From Spirochaetales bacterium (GTDB taxonomy: Bacteria; Spirochaetota; Spirochaetia; JABEVK01): DNA of 10,380 nucleotides. The notes below the pieces were generated by a model. The model was not told where the DNA came from and did no database searches. It saw only the letters and a program-made list of their open reading frames with translations. Below are positions 1-10,380 of the stretch, one piece after another. A program made the position numbers and the translations under genes. The DNA lies in NCBI GenBank assembly GCA_037142615.1, contig JBAXAI010000060.1:1-10380 (forward strand), given 5' to 3'. Within the stretch, counting starts at the first letter, position 1. Every line of letters begins with the position of its first letter.

Positions 1-61
1 GTGCGGGACTTGCGGAATATCGTTTGGACGATAGACTCCCCGTGCGGGGTATAGAAAGAAC
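1..61 (-). mobile_element. Possible terIS/5' end of a second IS91/ISCR-like element inserted in the ABC gene
   Basis: On the minus strand, GTTC (58-61) sits where ABC-like sequence stops. It is followed by a CCCCG-CA-CGGGG inverted repeat (38-49). A shifted frame reads LYPARGVYRP, which resembles my recollection of the N-terminal 'GVYRPR' motif of IS91-family transposases. Only 61 nt are visible. Confidence 0.35.
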
Positions 62-574
62 GGTCGACACCGCGATGAACGGCGTCACGAGCAGCAGAAT
101 CGCGGTCAGCCCGGCGTGGATGCTCATCAGCACCGACACCGAGAACAGAAAGATCAGGCTGTTCTCAAAACTCTGGTAAATCACCCACGCCACCAGGTGG
201 CGGCAGGTGTCGAGGTCGCCGGTCATCAGCGCCATGAGGTCGCCGGTCCGGGTGCGGTCGAAGTAAGCGAAGTCGAGGTGCTGGATCTTCACAAACAGGC
301 TTTCGCGCATCGCCTTCACAATGCGCTGGCTGACGTTCTCAAAGGCCATCACGAAGACCCAGCGCAGCGTCATACGCACGATGGTGGCCCCCATGAGCAG
401 GCCCAGCAGCGTCCAAAGCAGGCCGAAGTCGCGCCCCAGAATCACCTTGTCGACCAGCACGCCGGTGAGCGACGGGTTGACCATGCCCAACGCGCTGGCA
501 AACACCGTCAGGACCAGTGCCCCGGCCATGACAAAACGGTAAGGTCTCAAAAAGCTCCAGAACCAGCGGTACAT
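62..574 (-). CDS. ABC exporter (fused TMD-NBD, MsbA/multidrug-like), N-terminal transmembrane part only; appears interrupted at about nt 61
   Basis: Absent from the ORF track because no stop lies in the window. RBS GGAGGAG (578-584) precedes ATG at 574. Manual translation: MYRWFWSFLRPYRFVMAGALVLTVFASALGMVNPSLTGVLVDKVI...AMRESLFVKIQHLDFAYFDRTRTGDLMALMTGDLD...LLLVTPFIAVST. This contains the ABC_membrane 'L.F.YFD..RTGDLM...T.D' signature. Past nt 61 the frame stays open but the peptide (LSIPRTGSLSSKRY) and codons (ATA, CTA, AGT, CGA) no longer look like this gene. Confidence 0.85.
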
Positions 575-660
575 GGGCTCCTCCACGGCCTATGGTACGG
601 CCTCGGGGGCCGACTCGACTATTGCGGTCGTTGACCCGGGCATGTAAAATCTTGACATGC
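575..660. promoter_or_regulatory. Divergent ABC/AraC promoter region with candidate AraC sites
   Basis: Plus strand: TTGCGG (622-627), 17 nt, TAAAAT (645-650), 6 nt, ATG (657). Minus strand: -10-like TACCAT (592-597) with a poor -35. TTGAC direct repeats at 631-635 and 652-656 (21-bp period). Imperfect palindrome GCATGT-N9-ACATGC (640-660). Confidence 0.55.
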
Positions 661-1454
661 AAGTGCTCGGAACCGGCTTCAATTCAGCGACAGGCATCCA
701 GATCCATTCCCACAACGACAGCGACAAGCACGAGTTCCACTACTATGTGGAAGGCCGGGGAACGTTTTGGAACGACGGGGTCGAAATGGCGGTGGAACCG
801 GGGGCCCTCTTTCTGTCGGCTCCGGGAGAAGCCCACGGCGCGGCGGCTCATGGAACGGCGACCCACGGCGCGGCGCGGCCCGAAGGGCGATTCCAGCTGT
901 ACTGGCTGCTATTTTCTGCCAGCGACGACCCAGATGGTTTGTTGCCCCGGCTGCGCAGTCGTTTCGACGGCGGTGCAAAAATCACCATCGGCAAGGGTCA
1001 GTCCACGACGTTTGAAGACATCCGCCGCCGCTGGACCAGTTCTGACCCCCTTTCGCGGCGATCGGCGGACTACCGCTTCGCGACGCTGCTGTGCGACCTG
1101 GTGGCTGGCCCACGGGGGGGTACCAACGTTCCGGTGCACTACATAGAAGAAGCCATGGGAATGATGCAGGCCACGCTTCACGAGCCAGTCGACCTGCGGG
1201 CGCTGTCGGCGCACCTGGGCATCGACAAGGCCTACTTCGTGCGCTTGTTCAAGCGCCACGTGGGGGTGCCACCGATGCGGTACTTCCTCGATCTGCGGCT
1301 CGACTCGGCCAAGCACCGTCTGATGGGCGGCGACGAAAGCCTGCGCACCATCGCACTCGACCTCGGCTTCCACGACGAGTTCCACTTCAGTCACCAGTTC
1401 AAGGCCCACGTCGGCGTCAGCCCGCAGGCGTTCAAGGCCCACCCCGGCGCGTAG
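657..1454 (+). CDS. AraC-family transcriptional regulator with N-terminal cupin ligand-binding domain
   Basis: 265 aa. Cupin motifs HSH...HEFHYYVEGRG and PGEAH. C-terminal double HTH: LSAHLGIDKAYFVRLFKRHVGVPP...LRLDSAKHRL...IALDLGFHDEFHFSHQFKAHVGVSP. Confidence 0.95.
   Translation: MQVLGTGFNSATGIQIHSHNDSDKHEFHYYVEGRGTFWNDGVEMAVEPGALFLSAPGEAHGAAAHGTATHGAARPEGRFQLYWLLFSASDDPDGLLPRLRSRFDGGAKITIGKGQSTTFEDIRRRWTSSDPLSRRSADYRFATLLCDLVAGPRGGTNVPVHYIEEAMGMMQATLHEPVDLRALSAHLGIDKAYFVRLFKRHVGVPPMRYFLDLRLDSAKHRLMGGDESLRTIALDLGFHDEFHFSHQFKAHVGVSPQAFKAHPGA
831..875 (+). repeat. Three tandem in-frame 15-nt repeats inside the araC gene
   Basis: GCCCACGGCGCGGCG / GCTCATGGAACGGCG / ACCCACGGCGCGGCG, encoding AHGAA-AHGTA-THGAA. 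Confidence 0.8.
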
Positions 1455-1475
1455 TGTACCGGGGTGGGGTTCCTC

Positions 1476-1805
1476 TTACTTCAGCGTGACGGTGACAGCG
1501 GCCAGGACTTTCTTGGCGTCCTCGGTGTAGGCCACCTCGACCTTTTCGCCTTTTTTCAGTGTGGCAGGAAGGAAGGCCTTCTTGTCCTTGCCGGTGAATA
1601 CCGTTTTGGCGTCGAGAACAAAGGTCTCGTCCTTGGTGCCGACCTTGACGACGAGTTCATCGGGGGTCTTCTTGGCGGGGTCGGCGGCCTTGAACGAAAC
1701 AACCGTACCCGTGACGGTCTTGACGGCGGCTTTGGCGTCGGCGGCGAACGCGGCTCCCCCCAGAACGAACGAAACCAGAGCGGCGAACAAAGCGAACTTG
1801 CGCAT
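1476..1805 (-). CDS. Small exported Lys/Val/Thr-rich beta protein, probably OB-fold-like (DUF5666/DUF1344-type)
   Basis: RBS CAGGAG before ATG at 1805 gives 109 aa. Sec signal peptide MRKFALFAALVSFVLGGAAFA|AD. Mature part has the 'GTVVS...LVVK...ETFVLDAKT...LKKGEKVEVAY' pattern. The fold call is pattern recognition. Confidence 0.75.
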   Translation of the reverse strand: MRKFALFAALVSFVLGGAAFAADAKAAVKTVTGTVVSFKAADPAKKTPDELVVKVGTKDETFVLDAKTVFTGKDKKAFLPATLKKGEKVEVAYTEDAKKVLAAVTVTLK

Positions 1806-1855
1806 GAAAATCTCCTGAACAGAACGTGGATACGACCTCCAAGAGGTCTGTCTCC

Positions 1856-1908
1856 AACATAACTGCGCCACCTGAGAGGACCCTTAGTTGCCGATGAGAT
1901 TGTTCTTA
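1856..1908 (-). promoter_or_regulatory. Candidate response-regulator-activated promoter for the exported protein
   Basis: TAAG-N5-TCTCA occurs twice with a 22-bp period (plus-strand TGAGA-N5-CTTA at 1873-1886 and 1895-1908). A -10-like TATGTT lies at 1856-1861, so the proximal copy overlaps the -35 position. A leader hairpin GACCTC-N3-GAGGTC lies at 1834-1848. Confidence 0.5.
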
Positions 1909-3356
1909 TTTGAGGAAGAACCGCGGTCGATCGGCAGCGACAGGCGGAATCCCGCCCCTCCGCTAGCGGGGTTGTAGGCCACCAGACGTCCTCCGTGGAG
2001 TTCGACGGCAGCCCGGGCGATCGGCAGACCTAAACCGTAACCGGGTCGGCCATCGGCCATTTTCGTGAACCTCTCGAAGATGGTCTCCTCGGTCCCAGGC
2101 TCTAGCTCCGGCCCCTGGTTCTCGACCTCCAGCAGCGCGAAGCCCGCCTGTTCGTGAAGCCGGAAGGTGACAAACCCGCCGGACGGGCTGTACTTGACGG
2201 CGTTGTCGAGCAGATTGAGCAAGGCCTGCCCCAACCTGTCGGCGTCCAGGGCGACGGGCAGCGGGCCCGAAACCTGCCACACCGGAGCGAGGTCTTTCGA
2301 CGACAGCAACAGCGAAAAATCCTCAACCCACTGACGGCAGAAGTGCCCCAAGTCGACCACGCGGGTCTGCAGAATCAACTGCTGGGAATCCAGACGGGCC
2401 AGCAACAGCAGGTTCTCGATCAGGTGCGACATGCGGCTCACCTCGTCGAGGTTACTCTCGAGGATCGTTTGGTATACGTCCCCGGTGCGCACCTGGGTCA
2501 GGGCAGTCTCCAGCGTGCCGGTCAAGATGGCTAGCGGCGTCTTGAGCTGGTGAGAAAGGTCCTGGAACAGCCGCGTTTGAAACTGGAAGCCGCGGTCCAA
2601 CCGGTCGAGCATGGCGTTGAAAGTGACCGACAGCCGTTGGATTTCGTCGGGGGTCGCTGGAACGGGCACCCGAACTGACAAATTCTTTGCCGTGATGCGC
2701 CGGATGTCGGCGACCAAGCGGTCAACTGGCAGCAACGCCCGCTTGAGCGCCAAACTCACCAGCCAGGCCCCGGCCACCAGGAGAACGGCGACCGCCGCCA
2801 TCAGCAGGCCCTGCACCTGTGACAGGGTGCCCCGCAGCGCTTCGACGGGGCTCAGCACCTGAACAAATCCTTGAACCTCCCCGTCGAGGTGGACAGGGAC
2901 CGTTGCGACACGGAAGGTGTTCTTCTGATCGGAGGCGTCGATGACCGTTGCCAGCGAGCGGTGCACGCTGCCGGAACGGGCCACCTTGAGCACCTCGGCG
3001 TCGGGAACATCCACGGCATTGGGCACGTGGGTCGACAGCAGCACCTGGCCGTTGGTATCGAGCAGGCTGGTCATCGTGGGCAGCGACGCCGGGACGTCCT
3101 TGGGTTCGGTGAAGAGGTCTTTGAGGCCTTCGGTGAGGGCCCCGGTGAGCACAAGGCTGACCTTGGGCTTCTGCGACGACAACCAAGACTCGACGGCCAC
3201 AGCGGTGGCGGTGGCTTGCGCCGAAAGCGCCCCGTCCAAGGCACCGGTGAGCTGCTGGTCGAGCAGCCAGAACAGCAGGACCGTCCCCGCCAACAGCACC
3301 AACGCGTTGGCCGCCACCGACCACAGCGTCACCCGCAGGCGCAGGCCGAAGTTCAC
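1884..3356 (-). CDS. Membrane sensor histidine kinase (TCS1; CusS/CzcS-like architecture: 2 TM, periplasmic domain, HAMP, HisKA, HATPase)
   Basis: GTG start at 3356 overlaps the regulator stop (GTGA), giving 490 aa. HAMP 'NLSVRVPV...DEIQRLSVTFNAMLDRL', H-box DLSHQLKTPL, N-box NLLDNAVKYS, F-box IFERF, G2 GYGLGL. Confidence 0.93.
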   Translation of the reverse strand: MNFGLRLRVTLWSVAANALVLLAGTVLLFWLLDQQLTGALDGALSAQATATAVAVESWLSSQKPKVSLVLTGALTEGLKDLFTEPKDVPASLPTMTSLLDTNGQVLLSTHVPNAVDVPDAEVLKVARSGSVHRSLATVIDASDQKNTFRVATVPVHLDGEVQGFVQVLSPVEALRGTLSQVQGLLMAAVAVLLVAGAWLVSLALKRALLPVDRLVADIRRITAKNLSVRVPVPATPDEIQRLSVTFNAMLDRLDRGFQFQTRLFQDLSHQLKTPLAILTGTLETALTQVRTGDVYQTILESNLDEVSRMSHLIENLLLLARLDSQQLILQTRVVDLGHFCRQWVEDFSLLLSSKDLAPVWQVSGPLPVALDADRLGQALLNLLDNAVKYSPSGGFVTFRLHEQAGFALLEVENQGPELEPGTEETIFERFTKMADGRPGYGLGLPIARAAVELHGGRLVAYNPASGGAGFRLSLPIDRGSSSNKNNLIGN

Positions 3357-4027
3357 GCCTCGCCCCCGATCTGGTAGCCTCGCCCCCGCAGCGTACGGAT
3401 GAGCTTGACCGGCGAGTCGGCGTCGATCTTCTTGCGCAGGTAGTTGATGTACACCTCGATGATGTTGGTCGCGGTGTGAAAGTCGAGGTTCCAAACGTGC
3501 TCGCTGATCATGTTGCGGGTGACGACCCTACCTTGGCACCTCAGCAGATACTCCAGCAGGGCAAACTCTTTGTTGGACAGGTCAATCTGCCGCCCTGCCC
3601 TCTCGACCTTGCGGCTGAGCAGGTCGAGGTTCAAGTCGCCGCACGAAAGCACCGTCGCCTGTTCGGAGTCTTTTTTGCGCAGCAGAGCGCGGATGCGGGC
3701 CAAGAACTCCTCGAAGTCAAAGGGCTTGGACAGGTAGTCGTCGGCACCAGCGTCGAGCCCTGCGATTTTGTCGGGAACCGTTCCCAGCGCCGAGAGCATC
3801 AGCACGGGCATGGAGCGCCGGTGCTTCCTGAGTGCGCGGCAGACGCCCAGGCCGTCGAGACCGGGCAACACCACGTCGAGAACCACCACGTCGTAGTCCT
3901 TCTGGCGGGCCGCTGCCAGCGCCTCGCGCCCGTCGGTCAGGCATTCTACCTCGTAGCCGGCCTCATTCAGACCGCGCTTTACGAACTGGGCGATTTTCTC
4001 TTCGTCTTCGACAACCAGGATGAGCAT
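3353..4027 (-). CDS. OmpR/PhoB-family response regulator (TCS1; CusR/CzcR-like)
   Basis: RBS GAGGT before ATG at 4027 gives 224 aa. Motifs ILVVEDE, VVLDVVLPGLDG, GLDAGADDYLSKPF, and winged helix TNIIEVYINYLRKKID...LIRTLRGRGY. Confidence 0.95.
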   Translation of the reverse strand: MLILVVEDEEKIAQFVKRGLNEAGYEVECLTDGREALAAARQKDYDVVVLDVVLPGLDGLGVCRALRKHRRSMPVLMLSALGTVPDKIAGLDAGADDYLSKPFDFEEFLARIRALLRKKDSEQATVLSCGDLNLDLLSRKVERAGRQIDLSNKEFALLEYLLRCQGRVVTRNMISEHVWNLDFHTATNIIEVYINYLRKKIDADSPVKLIRTLRGRGYQIGGEA

Positions 4028-4084
4028 GGCACACCTCGAAGACAAAACACCCGGTACTGCAAAAGGAAACACCGCCGGGTGCTC

Positions 4085-4117
4085 GGCCTTCCCCTGCGGG
4101 CTGTGCAGGGGAAGGCC
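4085..4117 (-). terminator. Perfect 13-bp stem-loop just after the histone-fold gene stop (terminator-like or 3' stabilising hairpin)
   Basis: GGCCTTCCCCTGC (4085-4097), 7-nt loop, GCAGGGGAAGGCC (4105-4117), 14 nt past the stop codon. There is no adjacent U-tract. A second weaker stem, CACCCGG...CCGGGTG (4048-4081), is followed by TTTTGTCTT on the minus strand. Confidence 0.65.
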
Positions 4118-4131
4118 TGGACAACTGTGTC

Positions 4132-4316
4132 CTAGAAGTCTTTCTCGAGCAACGTCTTGCGGGCGTCGGCCTTGGCGCTCTTGATCGCCGCGTCACACAG
4201 CTCGCGCACTTTGTCTGAAAGCACATCAATCACGGCCGCCGAGCACTTCAGGTCCGAAGCCTCCTGATGTAGGCCTTCACCTTCGAAGCAATCACCAGAG
4301 TCTCTTTTTCTGCCAT
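4132..4316 (-). pseudogene. Bacterial histone-fold protein (Bd0055/HBb-like singlet) with an apparent 1-nt deletion near 4264-4267 (sequencing error or genuine frameshift)
   Basis: RBS AAAGGGGA precedes ATG at 4316, which reads MAEKETLVIASKVKAYI, then AGG AGG CTT CGG ACC TGA. The -1 frame continues EASDLKCSAAVIDVLSDKVRELCDAAIKSAKADARKTLLEKDF*. Restoring one base gives a 61-aa protein with the LV..SKVK..IK helix 1 and the RKTxxxxD histone-fold motif. Confidence 0.88.
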
Positions 4317-4374
4317 CTTCGTTCCCCTTTATTTTCGAAACTTTCCGATCGACCACAGGACCGGCTATCCGTTC

Positions 4375-4403
4375 ATCATTCCGGGTCTGTCGGCGGCGGT
4401 CAA
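4375..4403 (-). promoter_or_regulatory. Sigma70-like promoter for the histone-fold gene
   Basis: TTGACC (4398-4403), 17 nt, AATGAT (4375-4380), about 60 nt upstream of the ATG at 4316. Confidence 0.5.
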
Positions 4404-4436
4404 GGGCAGATTGAAAAGAAAGGGAGAGTTTGGTGG

Positions 4437-5948
4437 CTACGAGGGTGCCGAATACCCCGAGAAGAGGTCCGAACGGATGCGCCAGCGCGGTACGCCGAGT
4501 CGTGCCAGCTCGCGTCGCAGGTGGGCGACAAAGCCGCTGGTCCCCGAAAGGTAGTAGACGGCCTGGCGAGGTTGGTCAACCTGTGCGACGATTTGGCTCG
4601 CGCCCAGCCGCCCTTGCTCGCTGGTGATGGTGGTGAACGTCTGGGCCCCCAAGGTCGACGCCGCCTCGCCAAACACGTCGGCATACAGCTGGTCGCTCTT
4701 GTTTCGATACGACAGCAACAACGTCAAGGGACGCCGTTCCTGACGATCCAGCATGTCCTGAACCATGCTCCGGAACGGGGTGACTCCGACCCCTCCTCCG
4801 ATGAGGACGAGCGGCCGCTGCAACTTGCGGGGCAGCACGAAGTCTCCCCCCAGCTCCGAAGCCCACATCGTGTCGCCCGGGGCCAGCTCGAGCAGGCGGG
4901 CCTTAAAGGCGCTGGGTCGCGCCGGGATTCTTACCCCGAAGGCCACGACTGCCTCGCCCGGAGCCGACGAGAGGCTGAACACCCGGCGGTTGCCGCGCTG
5001 GTCGCTGGCACCTGGCAGGGTCCATTCCATGGACTGGCCAGGACGGTAGTTGAGGGCTCCTGTGGTGCGAAAAGCAAACTCCCACAGGCCGGGAGCGAGC
5101 TCTGTCTTGCGCGTCAGGGTCACCCGGTGCCGAGTCTGGGGATTCATGAACCACGACGCCACGTTGCCGAGGGCCAGCGCCCACTCGGGCGAAAAGTTGA
5201 AGCCAAAGAGCGACAGTTGCGGCAGCGCGAAAAAGGCCACGATCACGGCGTACACCATCTGCCGACCTTTGGTGCGTGGCGAGGTGATGGGCTCAGTGAG
5301 CATCACCACGGCAAGGAACACCTTTTCGGTGCTGCCAAACAGCAACACGAGGTTTTGCAGTGCTTCGGGAAGGGCCAGTCCCTGCACCAAGCCGTTGCCA
5401 ACTGCCAGAACGGAGTAGACCACGAGGAAAAACCCGACCAGAAACCCCCGTCGCGTCTTGATAACCACCAGAAGACCCCCCAGGGCCACCAGCGGCAGCA
5501 GAAGCGTTTGCCCCACCCACCAGCTGGCGTACTCCTGGAACAGCAGTCCTGTGAGCAGCACGCCCACAATCACGGGGTTGAAGACGTGGCGCCGGCCCCA
5601 AACCAGCAGGTATTTCGAGGCAATCGCCAGAAAGGCTGCGGCGCCCATGAAACCCAGACGCAGCGGCTCGGTCGTCGAAGCCGGTGAAAGAACCAAGGCC
5701 AAAATGAGCGCCGTGATGAGCGTCGACTCCCAGTTGCCGCCGGTGCGAAACACCTTCGAAAAAGCCCAGTTCGCCAGCAGCGCCACCGCGATCAACACGC
5801 TGGTGGTCTGCACAAGCGCGAGCGGCCCCGCTCCATCGGCGGGCAACCACCCCAGGACGCCTGCCGCCAAAGCGGCAAGAAGCAGGCCCCCCAGATAGTA
5901 GGCTGTGAGCCGGAACATGGTGATTCGGTCGAGCAGGCGGTTCAGCAT
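4437..5948 (-). CDS. Membrane oxidoreductase: RnfD/NqrB-like polytopic membrane domain fused to an FNR-family FAD/NAD(P)-binding domain
   Basis: RBS GAGGAA before ATG at 5948 gives 503 aa. N-terminal hydrophobic region with 'STLITALIL', 'AIASKYLL..GRRHVFNP' and 'VMLTEPITSP' (RnfD/NqrB-like). C-terminal 'YRPGQ', 'RRVFSLSSAP', 'IGGGVGVTPFRSM', 'YYLSGT', 'SDLFSGY' (FNR-like). Confidence 0.9.
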   Translation of the reverse strand: MLNRLLDRITMFRLTAYYLGGLLLAALAAGVLGWLPADGAGPLALVQTTSVLIAVALLANWAFSKVFRTGGNWESTLITALILALVLSPASTTEPLRLGFMGAAAFLAIASKYLLVWGRRHVFNPVIVGVLLTGLLFQEYASWWVGQTLLLPLVALGGLLVVIKTRRGFLVGFFLVVYSVLAVGNGLVQGLALPEALQNLVLLFGSTEKVFLAVVMLTEPITSPRTKGRQMVYAVIVAFFALPQLSLFGFNFSPEWALALGNVASWFMNPQTRHRVTLTRKTELAPGLWEFAFRTTGALNYRPGQSMEWTLPGASDQRGNRRVFSLSSAPGEAVVAFGVRIPARPSAFKARLLELAPGDTMWASELGGDFVLPRKLQRPLVLIGGGVGVTPFRSMVQDMLDRQERRPLTLLLSYRNKSDQLYADVFGEAASTLGAQTFTTITSEQGRLGASQIVAQVDQPRQAVYYLSGTSGFVAHLRRELARLGVPRWRIRSDLFSGYSAPS

Positions 5949-5959
5949 GGCACGTTCCT

Positions 5960-6319
5960 CTACTGGGCGGCTTTTTTGAGGGCCGAAGTCAGCGACTTGG
6001 CAAAGGCCTCGCTGGTGAGGGTCGCACCCGAGATCACGTCGACCGAGCTGCTGTTGGAATCCATGGCCTGGCGTGCCAGCGTGGGCAGCGCGTAGTTGCT
6101 GATGCTGTTCGATCGGTTGGTGTGGTTGGGATATTCCAACACCTGGATACGGGTGATCTTTCCTCCGGCGATGGTTGCCTGTACCTGCACGTAGCCCCAC
6201 AGCGCGTTGGCCCGAAGGCCGACGAACACGCCGTTGCCCAAGCTGTACGCAAACGCCGAAGTCACCGTGACCGCCAGCAAGAGGGCGGTTCCCACCAAGA
6301 TCTTCTGATATTTCTTCAT
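5960..6319 (-). CDS. Exported FMN-binding domain protein (FMN_bind; predicted covalent flavinylation at Thr100)
   Basis: RBS AAGGAG before ATG at 6319 gives 119 aa. Signal peptide ends SAFA|Y. Contains 'WGYVQVQATIAGGKITRIQVLEYP' and the ApbE target motif VDVISGATLTS. Confidence 0.93.
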   Translation of the reverse strand: MKKYQKILVGTALLLAVTVTSAFAYSLGNGVFVGLRANALWGYVQVQATIAGGKITRIQVLEYPNHTNRSNSISNYALPTLARQAMDSNSSSVDVISGATLTSEAFAKSLTSALKKAAQ

Positions 6320-6408: not shown

Positions 6409-7410
6409 TCAGCGAAGCGGAAAGCGCAGTTTGACGCGGGTTCCCTTGCCGGCAGGACTTTCGATTTCGACAGTTCCACCGTGCTCGGTGACAATGCGCT
6501 GCACGATGGCCAGGCCCAACCCCGCCCCGTCGGGGCTGCTGCTGCGCGCCTGGTCGGCCCGGTAGAGCGGGTCCAGCACATGAGGCAAGTCCTCGGGTGA
6601 AATTCCCATGCCGTCGTCAACGACCAGCACCTGAGCGGCGTCCCGGCTCACCGTCAGCGACACCTCAACCCGGCCACCGGCCAGTGTGTAGCGCAGCGAA
6701 TTGCCCAGAACGTTGACCAGGGCCCGCTCCACGGCCGGAGCATCCAGCGGCACCAGCACCGGTGGCGAGGGAGCCCACTGGAGGGTCAAACTTTTTTCGC
6801 GAGCGGGGCCGTCGAGCCGCTGCACAACGGTTCCCACCAGGTCGGCCAAGTCGTGGGGCTCGCGCCGCAGCTCCTGCTTTCCTTCGAGTGCGAGCAGCAG
6901 CAGGTCCTCGACCATCCTCGACATCCGGTCGACTTCCTCGAGCGAACTGAGCAGCACCTGGCGCGCCTCCTCCGGGGGAAGCTCAGCCTGGCGCAAAGCG
7001 ACTTCGGCTTCGGTGCGCAGCACTGCCAAAGGCGTCCGGAGGTCGTGAGCGGCGTTGGCAAAAAACTGCTGACGGGCCTCGACGGCCTGACGGATGGGGC
7101 GCAAAGTTCGTCCGGCCAAGTAGTAGCTCAGCAGCCCCGCCCCCAAAATAGTCAAGAGGTCGGTCAGCACAATCGACCGCGCCAGCCGCTCCAGGTAGTG
7201 TTCCAGCACCGTGTCTTGGGCCGTGGCCGGTTCCCTGGTGCCGAGCTCGCGCACTTCCTGCCCGTGCACGGTGTAGAGCGTCGAGCTCAAAAAGACCACC
7301 ACGATGGTCAGGATGATCAAGTACACCGAGGTGAGCCTCAGGCGGGCAATGACAAACGGATCAGCCCTTAAGGCAGTAACCCACGCCGCGAACCGTTTCG
7401 ATGAACTCAT
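6409..7410 (-). CDS. Sensor histidine kinase with a very short extracytoplasmic loop (TCS2)
   Basis: 333 aa. Two TM helices about 30 aa apart. H-box ANAAHDLRTPL, N-box NVLGNSLRYT, G1 DDGMGI, G2 GAGLGLAIV. The start is uncertain because it overlaps the regulator gene by 50 nt. Confidence 0.92.
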   Translation of the reverse strand: MSSSKRFAAWVTALRADPFVIARLRLTSVYLIILTIVVVFLSSTLYTVHGQEVRELGTREPATAQDTVLEHYLERLARSIVLTDLLTILGAGLLSYYLAGRTLRPIRQAVEARQQFFANAAHDLRTPLAVLRTEAEVALRQAELPPEEARQVLLSSLEEVDRMSRMVEDLLLLALEGKQELRREPHDLADLVGTVVQRLDGPAREKSLTLQWAPSPPVLVPLDAPAVERALVNVLGNSLRYTLAGGRVEVSLTVSRDAAQVLVVDDGMGISPEDLPHVLDPLYRADQARSSSPDGAGLGLAIVQRIVTEHGGTVEIESPAGKGTRVKLRFPLR

Positions 7411-8065
7411 TTTGCTTGCCCCCCGCCGGCCGCAGCCGCTCCACTTTCTTGCGCAGGTTCTTCACGTGCACATCGACCACGTTGCTGGCCCCATCGAACT
7501 CAAAGTCCCACAGGTTGTTGACAATCTGCACCCGCGAGAACACTTGGCCGGGGTGGCGCATGAGCAATTCCAGCAGACGGAATTCCTTGAGGGTGAGGCC
7601 GGCATCGCGGCCCGAAACCGTGGCCGTGAGGGTCACCGCGTTGAGTTCGACGTCGGCAAGCCTGAGCACTCCCGTGGGAGCCTCCAGCGGAGGACGACGG
7701 AGCAGAGCCCGCAGGCGCGCCGAAAGCTCGTCAAAGGCGAAAGGCTTGGCCAGGTAGTCGTCGGCACCGGCGTCGAGGCCTTTTACGCGGTCGGACACCT
7801 CGTCGCGGGCCGTGAGCATCAGAATGGGAAGGCGGACATCGGCCTTGCGCCAGCGGCGGCACAGCTCCAAGCCGTCCAAGTGGGGAAGCATCAGGTCGAG
7901 GACGATGGCGTCGAACCCCTCACCCGACGTGCGCTGCGCGCGGAGCAAGACGTCGAGAGCTTCTTCCCCGTCTTGGCACACCTCGACGACGGCTCCGTCG
8001 GCCATGAGGCCCTTCTTGATCGAGAGGGCGAGTTTCACGTTGTCTTCGACGACGAAGATCTTCAT
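7361..8065 (-). CDS. OmpR/PhoB-family response regulator (TCS2)
   Basis: ATG at 8065 (MKIFVVEDN) gives 234 aa. Motifs IVLDLMLPHLDG, ILMLTARD, GLDAGADDYLAKPF, SNVVDVHVKNLRKKV, IETVRGVGY. Confidence 0.95.
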   Translation of the reverse strand: MKIFVVEDNVKLALSIKKGLMADGAVVEVCQDGEEALDVLLRAQRTSGEGFDAIVLDLMLPHLDGLELCRRWRKADVRLPILMLTARDEVSDRVKGLDAGADDYLAKPFAFDELSARLRALLRRPPLEAPTGVLRLADVELNAVTLTATVSGRDAGLTLKEFRLLELLMRHPGQVFSRVQIVNNLWDFEFDGASNVVDVHVKNLRKKVERLRPAGGKQNEFIETVRGVGYCLKG

Positions 8066-8071
8066 GACAAC

Positions 8072-8100
8072 AGTATGGACCACAAAGCGGCCCCCGCGAA
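8072..8100 (-). promoter_or_regulatory. Candidate promoter giving a leaderless TCS2 transcript
   Basis: TTCGCG (8095-8100), 17 nt, CATACT (8072-8077), 6 nt, ATG (8065). No Shine-Dalgarno sequence. Confidence 0.5.
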
Positions 8101-8127
8101 GACTCCGCGGAGACAACTTCGTAGGCG

Positions 8128-9146: not shown

Positions 9147-10380
9147 TGATAGGAACAGTGATCCCGGCGCAAGCCGTGGTTTTGGGCCGACCGGAGCCGA
9201 AATTGCCCCGGACATCGGCGAACTTGCCACCCGCAGTTCCCGAATCTGTTCCTGCAACCTCGGCAACGCCGAACTGAACCAATTTTGGGTGCGAACCACG
9301 GCGGATGTCAATCCCAAACCAGAATTGGGTCAGATAGCCCGAGAGGCTCGAGGCATAGCTCGCGCGAGGGTTGCAGAACTCACGAGTTGAAAAGTCGCAG
9401 GCACAACGGGAAATGGCAGTTCAAGCTTGGGGAATCGGCGGTCCACGTACCTCGGGCAAGGCCGGCTGTTGCTGGGCCGCCCATTCGATGATGGCCTTGA
9501 GCTTGACCGGGTCCTCGATCACCCCCACCACGACCATGGTTCCGCCGCACTTAGGGCAGAGGAACGGGTCGACCTCATAAACCTTCTTGAGCAGCCGAGC
9601 CCAGTTCTTCTTGCGTTGCCGGGACCAGGAGTCGGGAACTTCGGGGAGTTCGCTACTCTCGGGCCCGACCTCGGCAAGTTCGAGTCCAGTTTCGTGGGCC
9701 TTGGTCCAGCCCTCCGGGGCAAAGCGAGATATTTTTGGCAGTTCGGTCCACTTCGACCGGACTCGGCTGGAATAGATTCCATACCGACGAACCAGTTGCG
9801 CTCTGCGGGGCGGGAGGTGGGCGACAAGCTGGTCGACGAACTCGAACCCCTTGAAGGTCTCGACCTTTCCGTCAAAGAACCCGTTGGCACGGGCCGACCA
9901 AGTGACAACGTCGGCAGTGGAATCGTAGCTGATGCGTTGTTCACTGACGGCACCCCGAACGGCATACTGCCCCAATGCCTCCTTGGTTGGTTTGTCCAGC
10001 ATTCGGGTTTCGCTCTCAACGCTGAAACCAGAGTGGACCCATGACCGGATCATCGACACCCGGTCTTGGTCGATCAGTTTGTGCTTCAAGAACAAGGCCA
10101 AGATGGATTCCTGCCAAAGCTTGAGCAGGCCAGCGTCGCAACCCAAGGGTAGATAGACAAATCGGCCCCACTCGTCGAAACCTCCCTCCAGGACCAGAAC
10201 GTGCCAATGAGGGTGGAACCGTGCAAACTCTCCGAACGATTGGTAAGAGGAGACACACCCGCACAGAAGCTCCCGCTGAGCCGCCAGGCTGAAGAACCCC
10301 GACAGCAACTCGAAAATCAGCCTGCAGACCTCGCCGAATAGGCGCTTGTCGTTCTTGAAGTACGGCCTCAGAATCTTGGG
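9147..10380 (-). mobile_element. IS91/ISCR-family rolling-circle insertion sequence (partial; oriIS end at about 9147)
   Basis: HUH transposase gene, followed by 274 nt of non-coding DNA with short inverted repeats ending in ...CTGTTCCTATCA|GTTT. This has the TTCCTAT core typical of oriIS, next to a GTTC-like target. No terminal inverted repeats or target duplication, as expected for this family. Confidence 0.8.
9421..10380 (-). CDS. IS91/ISCR-family HUH transposase, 5'-partial
   Basis: Frame is open to the window edge (PKILRPYFKNDKRLFGEVCRLIFELLSGF...). HUH motif FHPHWHVLV, 'HSGFSV', catalytic-region LGQYAVR, 'VRRYGIYS', and C-terminal WARLLKKVYEVDPFLCPKCGGTM. Confidence 0.93.
   Translation of the reverse strand, partial: PKILRPYFKNDKRLFGEVCRLIFELLSGFFSLAAQRELLCGCVSSYQSFGEFARFHPHWHVLVLEGGFDEWGRFVYLPLGCDAGLLKLWQESILALFLKHKLIDQDRVSMIRSWVHSGFSVESETRMLDKPTKEALGQYAVRGAVSEQRISYDSTADVVTWSARANGFFDGKVETFKGFEFVDQLVAHLPPRRAQLVRRYGIYSSRVRSKWTELPKISRFAPEGWTKAHETGLELAEVGPESSELPEVPDSWSRQRKKNWARLLKKVYEVDPFLCPKCGGTMVVVGVIEDPVKLKAIIEWAAQQQPALPEVRGPPIPQA

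Follow-up and report, generated by a model that had tools for sequence, protein, structure and literature searches.

A probable, recently inactivated allele of an HBb-type histone gene in a freshwater spirochaete

How is a bacterial histone gene to be understood when the DNA that carries it spells the protein in two reading frames? This question is raised by a locus on the minus strand of a 10,380-nucleotide stretch of DNA, hereafter the window, which is the entire contig C60 in the assembly of a Spirochaetales bacterium (G000; 4.27 Mb in 76 contigs, 96.7% complete, estimated contamination 2.24%). In a first-pass annotation made from the letters alone, two adjacent frames had been joined there into one protein of 61 residues likened to HBb (Bd0055), the histone of Bdellovibrio bacteriovorus. 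To our knowledge, bench work on bacterial histones has dealt with HBb and the Leptospira histones only. A bacterial histone fold has been counted in 1.86% of 18,343 genomes (Hocher, 2023), and histones of the 'bacterial dimer' class are described from the class Spirochaetia of the Spirochaetota, among other phyla (Schwab et al., 2024; PMC11390915). HBb-like histones being already known in Spirochaetia, the locus adds little to the catalogue. As argued below, its segment 4316-4132 is probably a recently inactivated allele of an HBb-type histone gene in a freshwater spirochaete, with an intact copy elsewhere in the assembly.

The features of the locus are collected in Table 1. On the minus strand, the ATG at 4316-4314 starts MAEKETLVIASKVKAYI, the 17 codons of which run from 4316 to 4266. 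Past codon 17 this frame continues as RRLRT and then meets a TGA. From 4266 the -1 frame reads QEASDLKCSAAVIDVLSDKVRELCDAAIKSAKADARKTLLEKDF, 44 residues ending at the TAG 4134-4132. If uninterrupted, the gene would encode 61 residues. A natural, intact protein of that very length, P0003, is identical to the first piece at 17 of 17 positions and to the second at 42 of 43, with a lysine at residue 18. Because one natural protein matches both pieces, the joined match goes beyond chance, and the proposal that two adjacent frames make up a single 61-residue protein is borne out. In the window copy itself one uninterrupted frame from ATG to stop is absent, the break lying at codon 18 and the TGA at 4250-4248. 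When the window gene is aligned with a second copy, found on contig C27 of the assembly, a single 1-nt gap appears. It falls in the K18 codon, where ATC-AGGAG in the window faces ATCAAAGAG in the paralog.

Table 1. Coordinates of the histone locus, its flanking signals and its neighbours (window positions unless a contig is named).
Feature	Position	Strand	Remarks
HBb/Bd0055-like 'bacterial dimer' histone gene (assigned by sequence), stop included	4132..4316	-	two frames; 1-nt gap relative to paralog; PDB matches; identity to P0003
First 17 codons, MAEKETLVIASKVKAYI: helix α1 with conserved S11-K12 and K14	4266..4316	-	17/17 identical to P0003
Missing-base site, conserved K18 codon	4264..4265	-	minus-strand AG in window, AAG in intact alleles
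Premature TGA of the ATG frame	4248..4250	-	ATG product is a 22-residue peptide
Remaining 44 codons, -1 frame: end of α1, L1, α2, L2 (R53-K54-T55), D60, short α3	4135..4266	-	
74-residue GTG ORF (P0002)	4132..4356	-	sole call in mechanical ORF list; first 30 residues out of frame
Shine-Dalgarno-like GGGGA, 6 nt upstream of ATG 4316	4323..4327	-	GGGG kept in paralog
Sigma-70-like promoter candidate, TTGACC-17-AATGAT	4375..4403	-	9/12 matches; both hexamers kept in C27 copy
Perfect 13-bp stem, 7-nt loop, 15 nt past stop codon	4085..4117	-	inverted repeat 4085-4097 / 4105-4117
Intact 61-residue second histone copy (P0004)	G000:C27:15375-15557 (L002 1450-1635; L091 6376-6558)	+	intact ORF
ABC transporter start	2-586	-	
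AraC regulator	657-1454	+	
Small protein	1476-1871	-	sub-threshold DUF5666 match
HAMP histidine kinase	1884-3494	-	
OmpR-type response regulator, downstream of histone	3353-4072	-	
587-residue protein with C-terminal FNR-like NAD-binding module, upstream of histone	4437-6200	-	Pfam NAD_binding_1 2.2e-08
Second kinase/regulator pair	6409-7410 and 7361-8116	-	
IS91-family (Y2) transposase	9421-10380	-	runs off contig end

The only reading frame listed mechanically at this place is the GTG ORF P0002. Its residues 1-30 come from the leader and the N-terminal DNA read out of frame, and it carries no name in the protein collection. The first-pass annotation had put this down to a wrongly annotated N-terminus. 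That explanation has to be given up: it is the DNA of the allele which lacks one base in codon 18. Gene callers thus miss or mis-call the window copy because of a genuine frameshift, and surveys that count proteins would log a 74-residue 'hypothetical protein' at the locus.

The family to which the gene belongs was approached through its intact relatives. A search of the protein collection with the 44-residue piece retrieves 33 proteins, nearly all of 61-62 residues, and a family alignment and profile were built from 31 intact relatives (mean column identity 77%). Invariant positions in these 31 sequences include S11, K12, K14, I17, S26, A27, R53, K54, T55 and D60. K18 is nearly invariant among them, K or R being found there in 76 of the 78 intact loci described below; in the window copy, the K18 codon is the one struck by the deletion. 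The profile matches Bdellovibrio HBb/Bd0055 (8fvx/8cmp) with E 8e-20 and 74 bits, gap-free over residues 5-61. It is weaker against HLp of Leptospira perolatii (9qt0; E 1e-14, residues 2-61) and against the archaeal HTkC of Thermococcus (9f2c; E 1e-10), and several structures of archaeal histones follow at E 2e-4 and weaker. The C-terminal piece of the window alone also matches 8fvx/8cmp (E 1e-06), its residues 2-43 falling on 19-60 without gaps. The general Pfam model CBFD_NFYB_HMF (PF00808) reaches the window piece at E 0.009 and 16.7 bits, under its cut-off of 21.4; at E up to 1 it matches 29 of the 31 relatives, with 1.1e-05 at best. NCBIfam, which has no model for the histone, yielded no family for P0003. 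On these sequence comparisons, the window gene is assigned to the HBb/Bd0055-like, α3-truncated 'bacterial dimer' class. The protein of the repaired type does match HBb, as the first-pass annotation had expected of a Bd0055-like singlet histone.

The 'bacterial dimer' class was defined by sequence clustering, and its members are described as devoid of the face-to-face (FtF) dimer-dimer contacts R48/N52 while retaining an RKT...D motif and three α1 lysines, numbered K11, K13 and K17 in that paper (Schwab et al., 2024; PMC11390915). The L2 RKT motif, the downstream D60 and the α1 lysines K12 and K14 are all present in the family. In FtF histones such as HLp and HTkC, a conserved R48 and N52 are reported to mediate a torus-shaped tetramer, and both HLp (9qt0-9qt2) and the histone of L. 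interrogans are described as FtF tetrameric (Hu et al., 2025; PMC12701072). We infer from spacing where the published numbers R48/N52 fall on HLp. At the positions aligned with the R and N of HLp, the family has S47 and D51, within a SAKAD stretch also found in HBb; the R/N pair typical of the FtF tetrameric class is absent.

HBb (8cmp, 8fvx, 9ezz) is the closest known system. It shares with the window family a length of about 61-64 residues, an alignment without gaps over 5-61 with 52% identity in Foldseek, the S-K motif of α1 discussed by Hocher (2023), three α1 lysines, SAKAD, the RKT....D of L2 and α3, a short α2, a very short α3 and a homodimeric state, which is a prediction for the window family. 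Unlike HBb, the window copy is frameshifted, its host is a freshwater spirochaete and no predator, and two copies occur in one assembly. HLp belongs to the same phylum and has the α3-truncated fold with a near-identical α1; in the alignments the N-terminal AEKETLVIASKVKAYIK of the window family is nearer to HLp than to HBb. The archaeal HMfA/HMfB (1a7w, 1b67) have in common with the family the histone fold and the region of the L2 RKT / RD clamp, the profile match being weak (E 0.03-0.07); compared with them, the family has a shorter α2 and a truncated α3. Two cysteines, C25 in L1 and C41 in α2, are nearly invariant in the spirochaete histones and conserved in the window family. HBb lacks them, having T and C/L-type residues at these places. 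In the predicted dimer, residue 41 touches α1 of the partner, and a redox or metal role for C25/C41 may be imagined.

In the window allele, no single frame encodes the full histone fold, and structure prediction was made with the intact allele P0003. The monomer model comprises helices 2-21 and 27-50 and a short helical turn 58-60, with a mean pLDDT of only 64.7; the class is characterised by a short α2 and an α3 of 3-4 residues, and the model agrees with this. A Foldseek search with this model gave nothing at E <= 0.001. The top matches were HBb chains (E 0.03, probability 0.96, TM 0.52, 52% identity); HTkC, HLp and eukaryotic H2B came next. This result lends weak support to a histone fold. 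As a homodimer, P0003 obtained an ipSAE of 0.59, as compared to 0.00 for the best control; among solved structures, 20 of 30 homomers attain this mark and 1 of 23 single chains does. The runs agreed in 100% of contacts, with a partner pLDDT of at least 81. The predicted contacts correspond to an antiparallel handshake, with α2-α2 (37 with 37, 33 with 40) and L1-L2 (24 with 55) pairings, and α1 residues 5-9, 12-13 and 16-17 belong to the predicted interface. Since HBb dimers have already been solved, this result may reflect mere likeness to HBb. The first-pass annotation had made the absence of a handshake dimer a test of its proposal, and a handshake homodimer is what the prediction returned for P0003. 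Its suggestion of a histone probably of the dimeric type is supported by SAKAD in place of the R...N of HLp and by the predicted homodimer.

By homology to HBb, the intact 61-residue protein would form a handshake homodimer. It would bind DNA without sequence specificity through the α1 lysines K12, K14 and K18 and also through the RKT motif of L2, held by D60. By analogy with work on HBb and HLp, it would be present in abundance in the nucleoid and would bend or coat the DNA there, the 2024 HBb paper, which deals with DNA bending by HBb, being one source of this view. In the assembled strain, the gene has lost one base of the K18 codon, such that translation from the ATG would stop after 22 residues. 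The window copy most likely makes no histone. Its products would be a peptide of at most 22 residues or the 74-residue protein devoid of α1, most likely inert in either case.

The first-pass annotation described the gene as a hidden histone of the organism, a picture which has changed with the intact copy, P0004, on contig C27 of the same assembly. This copy shares 93% of residues with the 44-residue piece and, over its full 61 residues, 92% with P0003. Promoter-like hexamers and the Shine-Dalgarno (SD) sequence are conserved between the C27 and window copies, and a single-domain response regulator follows the C27 histone gene on the opposite strand. The same assembly has an HU/IHF-family gene on contig C17. 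Histone function would presumably be provided by the C27 copy alongside the HU protein.

How contigs C60 and C27 came to resemble each other bears on this last point. Close copies of window genes are limited to the ABC transporter start, the AraC regulator and the histone, all on C27 and in the same relative order; protein identities are 88.6% for the N-terminus of the ABC transporter, 80% for AraC and 93% for the C-terminal piece of the histone. At the nucleotide level, window positions 62-1457 (AraC and the ABC start) are 78.7% identical to G000:C27:22722-24089. Judging from these sequences, the shared genes could stem from an old segmental duplication or from a co-binned relative. In the second case, C60 would represent a related population binned together with the main one, the two histones would be counterparts, and the organism of C60 may have lost its only histone. 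We regard this as rather unlikely. The three genes do keep their order and orientation in C60 and C27, the estimated contamination of the assembly containing C60 is 2.24%, other small contigs (C57, C59 and C66) match large ones at 76-78%, and each of the seven other histone-bearing genomes has its histone at one place only. However, C60 does not stand out from the genome in GC content (61.8%, versus 60.8%) or in tetranucleotide profile, the distance to the genome mean being larger for 90% of 387 10-kb chunks; between the shared genes, C60 and C27 differ entirely in gene content; and paralog pairs of 75-84% identity are found inside the single contigs C11, C22, C32 and C51 as well. In the genomes of the genus, compared for AraC copy number, the closest relatives are 38-57% identical. 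Neither composition, nor copy number within the genus, nor comparison of the genome with itself separates a segmental duplication from co-binning. If C60 were foreign, the argument of a backup copy would fail; the conclusions on the family and on the frameshift would be untouched.

The paralog also gives an indication of the age of the break. Between the window and C27 copies, dN is 0.029 and dS 0.59, hence a dN/dS of 0.05. These values suggest that strong purifying selection acted on both copies during almost the whole of their divergence, and hence that the deletion is recent. Searching contigs that represent one genome per species, 82 stretches encoding a relative were found. Two of them are from Asgard archaea, and the 80 loci kept carry names of Spirochaetia type (76), Bacteriovoracaceae (1) or bacteria without further naming (3). 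Among relatives with a name, those closest are MAGs from fresh water or sediment, labelled 'Spirochaetales', 'Treponemataceae' or 'Treponematales'. The ORF is intact in 78 of the 80 loci and frameshifted in none; of the remaining two, L072 is ended by the end of its contig and L080 is masked by N. The latter, with a match of 181 nt, had been considered as a frameshifted locus and was dismissed, being merely N-masked.

Among G000 and 30 relatives, 8 of the 31 genomes contain a match to P0003, including 2 of the 4 others in the genus and 5 of the 11 in the family; G000 alone has the histone at two places. On a wider scale, 1099 of 1.84 billion cluster representatives match at E <= 0.001. In the representatives that score best with the family profile (P0035, P0036, P0038, P0043 and P0037), the HBb-like fold occurs twice in tandem; these natural doublets measure 126-149 residues and contain two full repeats. 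In one protein of 268 residues among the best representatives, the doublet is preceded by a Cys/His-rich N-terminus.

Is the missing base a property of the DNA or an error of the metagenome-assembled genome, the gene being intact in the organism? An error in sequencing or assembly would agree with a low depth (about 8 in run X1), with the strong purifying selection on the gene (dN/dS 0.05) and with the fact that every other gene of the window reads through unbroken. To examine the site, contigs from four public runs were placed on window positions 3400-5200; these are assembled contigs of low depth (3.8-9.3). The runs in which the window occurs are freshwater or lake metagenomes. In X1, the likely source run and as such not independent of the window, a Logan contig of 1210 nt covers 3400-4475 with 0 differences and 0 gaps. 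X7, an RNA library of another study, provides a 357-nt contig (3938-4294, depth 9.33), again with 0 differences and 0 gaps. X2 (DNA, other study; 879 nt, depth 8.14) and X5 (DNA, third study; 437 nt, depth 3.8) both have an extra base behind 4264 together with 4246 C>A; this one letter and one gap are all that separates the X2 contig from the window over 879 nt. The inserted base is carried by 8.14/8.14 in X2 and 3.8/3.8 in X5, against 0/8.05 in X1 and 0/9.33 in X7. On the minus strand, the form in X2 and X5 restores AAG (K18) and, with K24N, encodes exactly P0003.

That an intact form, otherwise 99.8% identical, exists in X2 and X5 may be counted in favour of an error. Yet the same deletion is found both in the separate Logan assembly of X1 and in the X7 RNA contig from another sample and study, and the site is a run of two A, not a long homopolymer. 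Moreover, the deletion goes together with K24 and the intact form with N24; two haplotypes thus exist, a pattern which argues against a random error of assembly. We consider an artefact very unlikely and take the break for a true allele of the strain. The window copy would thus be a very recent pseudogene, the intact allele of which persists in sister populations from other samples.

Another way of keeping the gene functional would be for the broken allele to be expressed as it stands, by a programmed -1 shift near codon 18, by use of the 74-residue GTG ORF or from an internal start. The deletion leaves AGGAGG at 4265-4260, a perfect SD-like sequence that would suit an internal start. Internal SD-like sequences stimulate some known frameshifts. 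The broken allele was also found in an RNA library, and the 74-residue ORF, which keeps α2, L2 and α3, could in principle be made. However, the junction TAC ATC AGG AGG contains no slippery heptamer of the X XXY YYZ type, and none of the 80 related loci is frameshifted whereas programmed shifts are normally conserved. Because the site is not slippery and no frameshift occurs among the 80 loci, programmed recoding appears unlikely. As to the GTG ORF or an internal start, their products would be deprived of α1 with S11-K12, K14 and K18, which is part of the predicted dimer interface, and an SD-like sequence was not seen upstream of GTG 4356. That a functional histone could come from the broken allele by any of these routes seems to us extremely doubtful.

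The ribosome binding site, candidate promoter and perfect 13-bp 3′ hairpin named in the first-pass annotation were all recovered (GGGGA, TTGACC-17-AATGAT and 4085-4097 / 4105-4117, respectively). For the promoter candidate at 4403-4375, one occurrence was found against 0.1 expected in shuffles. The 81-nt stretch containing the 13-bp stem has a folding energy of -43.5 kcal/mol (z -6.08), a value matched by none of 200 shuffles. No U-run directly follows the stem; a second small hairpin and then UUUCCUUUUG lie just beyond. The 13-bp hairpin is probably part of a terminator or of an RNA-stabilising 3′ structure. In the alignment with the paralog, the sequence behind the C27 copy shows no counterpart of it. 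The idea of a repeated element was rejected: the 13-mer arm occurs at three other places in the genome, none of which forms a hairpin. The X7 contig from the RNA library (3938-4294) includes the 3′ part of the histone gene and continues across the 13-bp hairpin as far as nucleotide 90 of the response-regulator gene. Should this contig be RNA, the hairpin would not be a full terminator; carry-over of DNA is possible, and the presence of a sequence in an RNA library is no proof of its transcription. X7 cover is absent over 4315-5200 and in other bins, but with assembled contigs such gaps are uninformative.

In the first-pass annotation, the histone gene was placed inside a signalling/redox gene cluster, between a flavin redox operon and a two-component system. 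Upstream, the 4437-6200 protein gives an RnfD-like match under the cut-off (E 0.0013), and it is from this sub-threshold match that its N-terminal half may be taken for a membrane part; NCBIfam matches of the protein lie far under their cut-offs. When the proteins neighbouring the histone in the window and on C27 were compared with the 80 related loci, matches to window proteins were found in 5 loci, all weak (24-42% identity). After clustering of the neighbours of the 80 loci, no histone-specific cluster in common with the window was obtained. The window and C27 join just one cluster of 7 loci, with no fixed side or strand, the representative of which looks like a sensor kinase. The comparison of synteny in relatives foreseen in the first-pass annotation did reveal shared subsets: a membrane protein is encoded upstream in 26 loci, and a large peptidase-like protein, also upstream, in 20. 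The window and C27 belong to neither subset. A functional link of the histone to the two-component or flavoprotein genes was rejected since the neighbours are not conserved among the 80 loci, and on these comparisons the flanking two-component and flavoprotein-like genes appear incidental.

Within the window, the two OmpR-type regulators share 84 nt (3678-3761 / 7698-7781) at 81% identity. Many foreign contigs pile up at 3705-3765, which is a conserved receiver-domain segment and not a repeat element. The IS91-family transposase and the duplicated ABC gene, at opposite ends, are probably why the contig is only 10.4 kb long.

A last reading concerns the role of the gene. The window copy may encode an accessory, strain-variable nucleoid protein, carried on a variable island and turned off by mutation in some strains of one population of the freshwater spirochaete. 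The proposed island would be the contig ending in the IS91-family transposase, with its two extra two-component systems. We hold this to be distinctly unlikely. Were it true, intact and broken alleles would coexist, and bacterial histone paralogs would be dispensable and tuned by dosage; in Bdellovibrio and Leptospira, by contrast, the single histone is reported to be essential (PMC11390915).

The preferred reading remains that of an HBb-type histone allele inactivated recently by the loss of one base. Within one natural population, a histone paralog appears to occur as an intact and as a broken allele, with another, intact copy also present. Such a mixture of alleles would offer a natural test of whether duplicated bacterial histones are dispensable.
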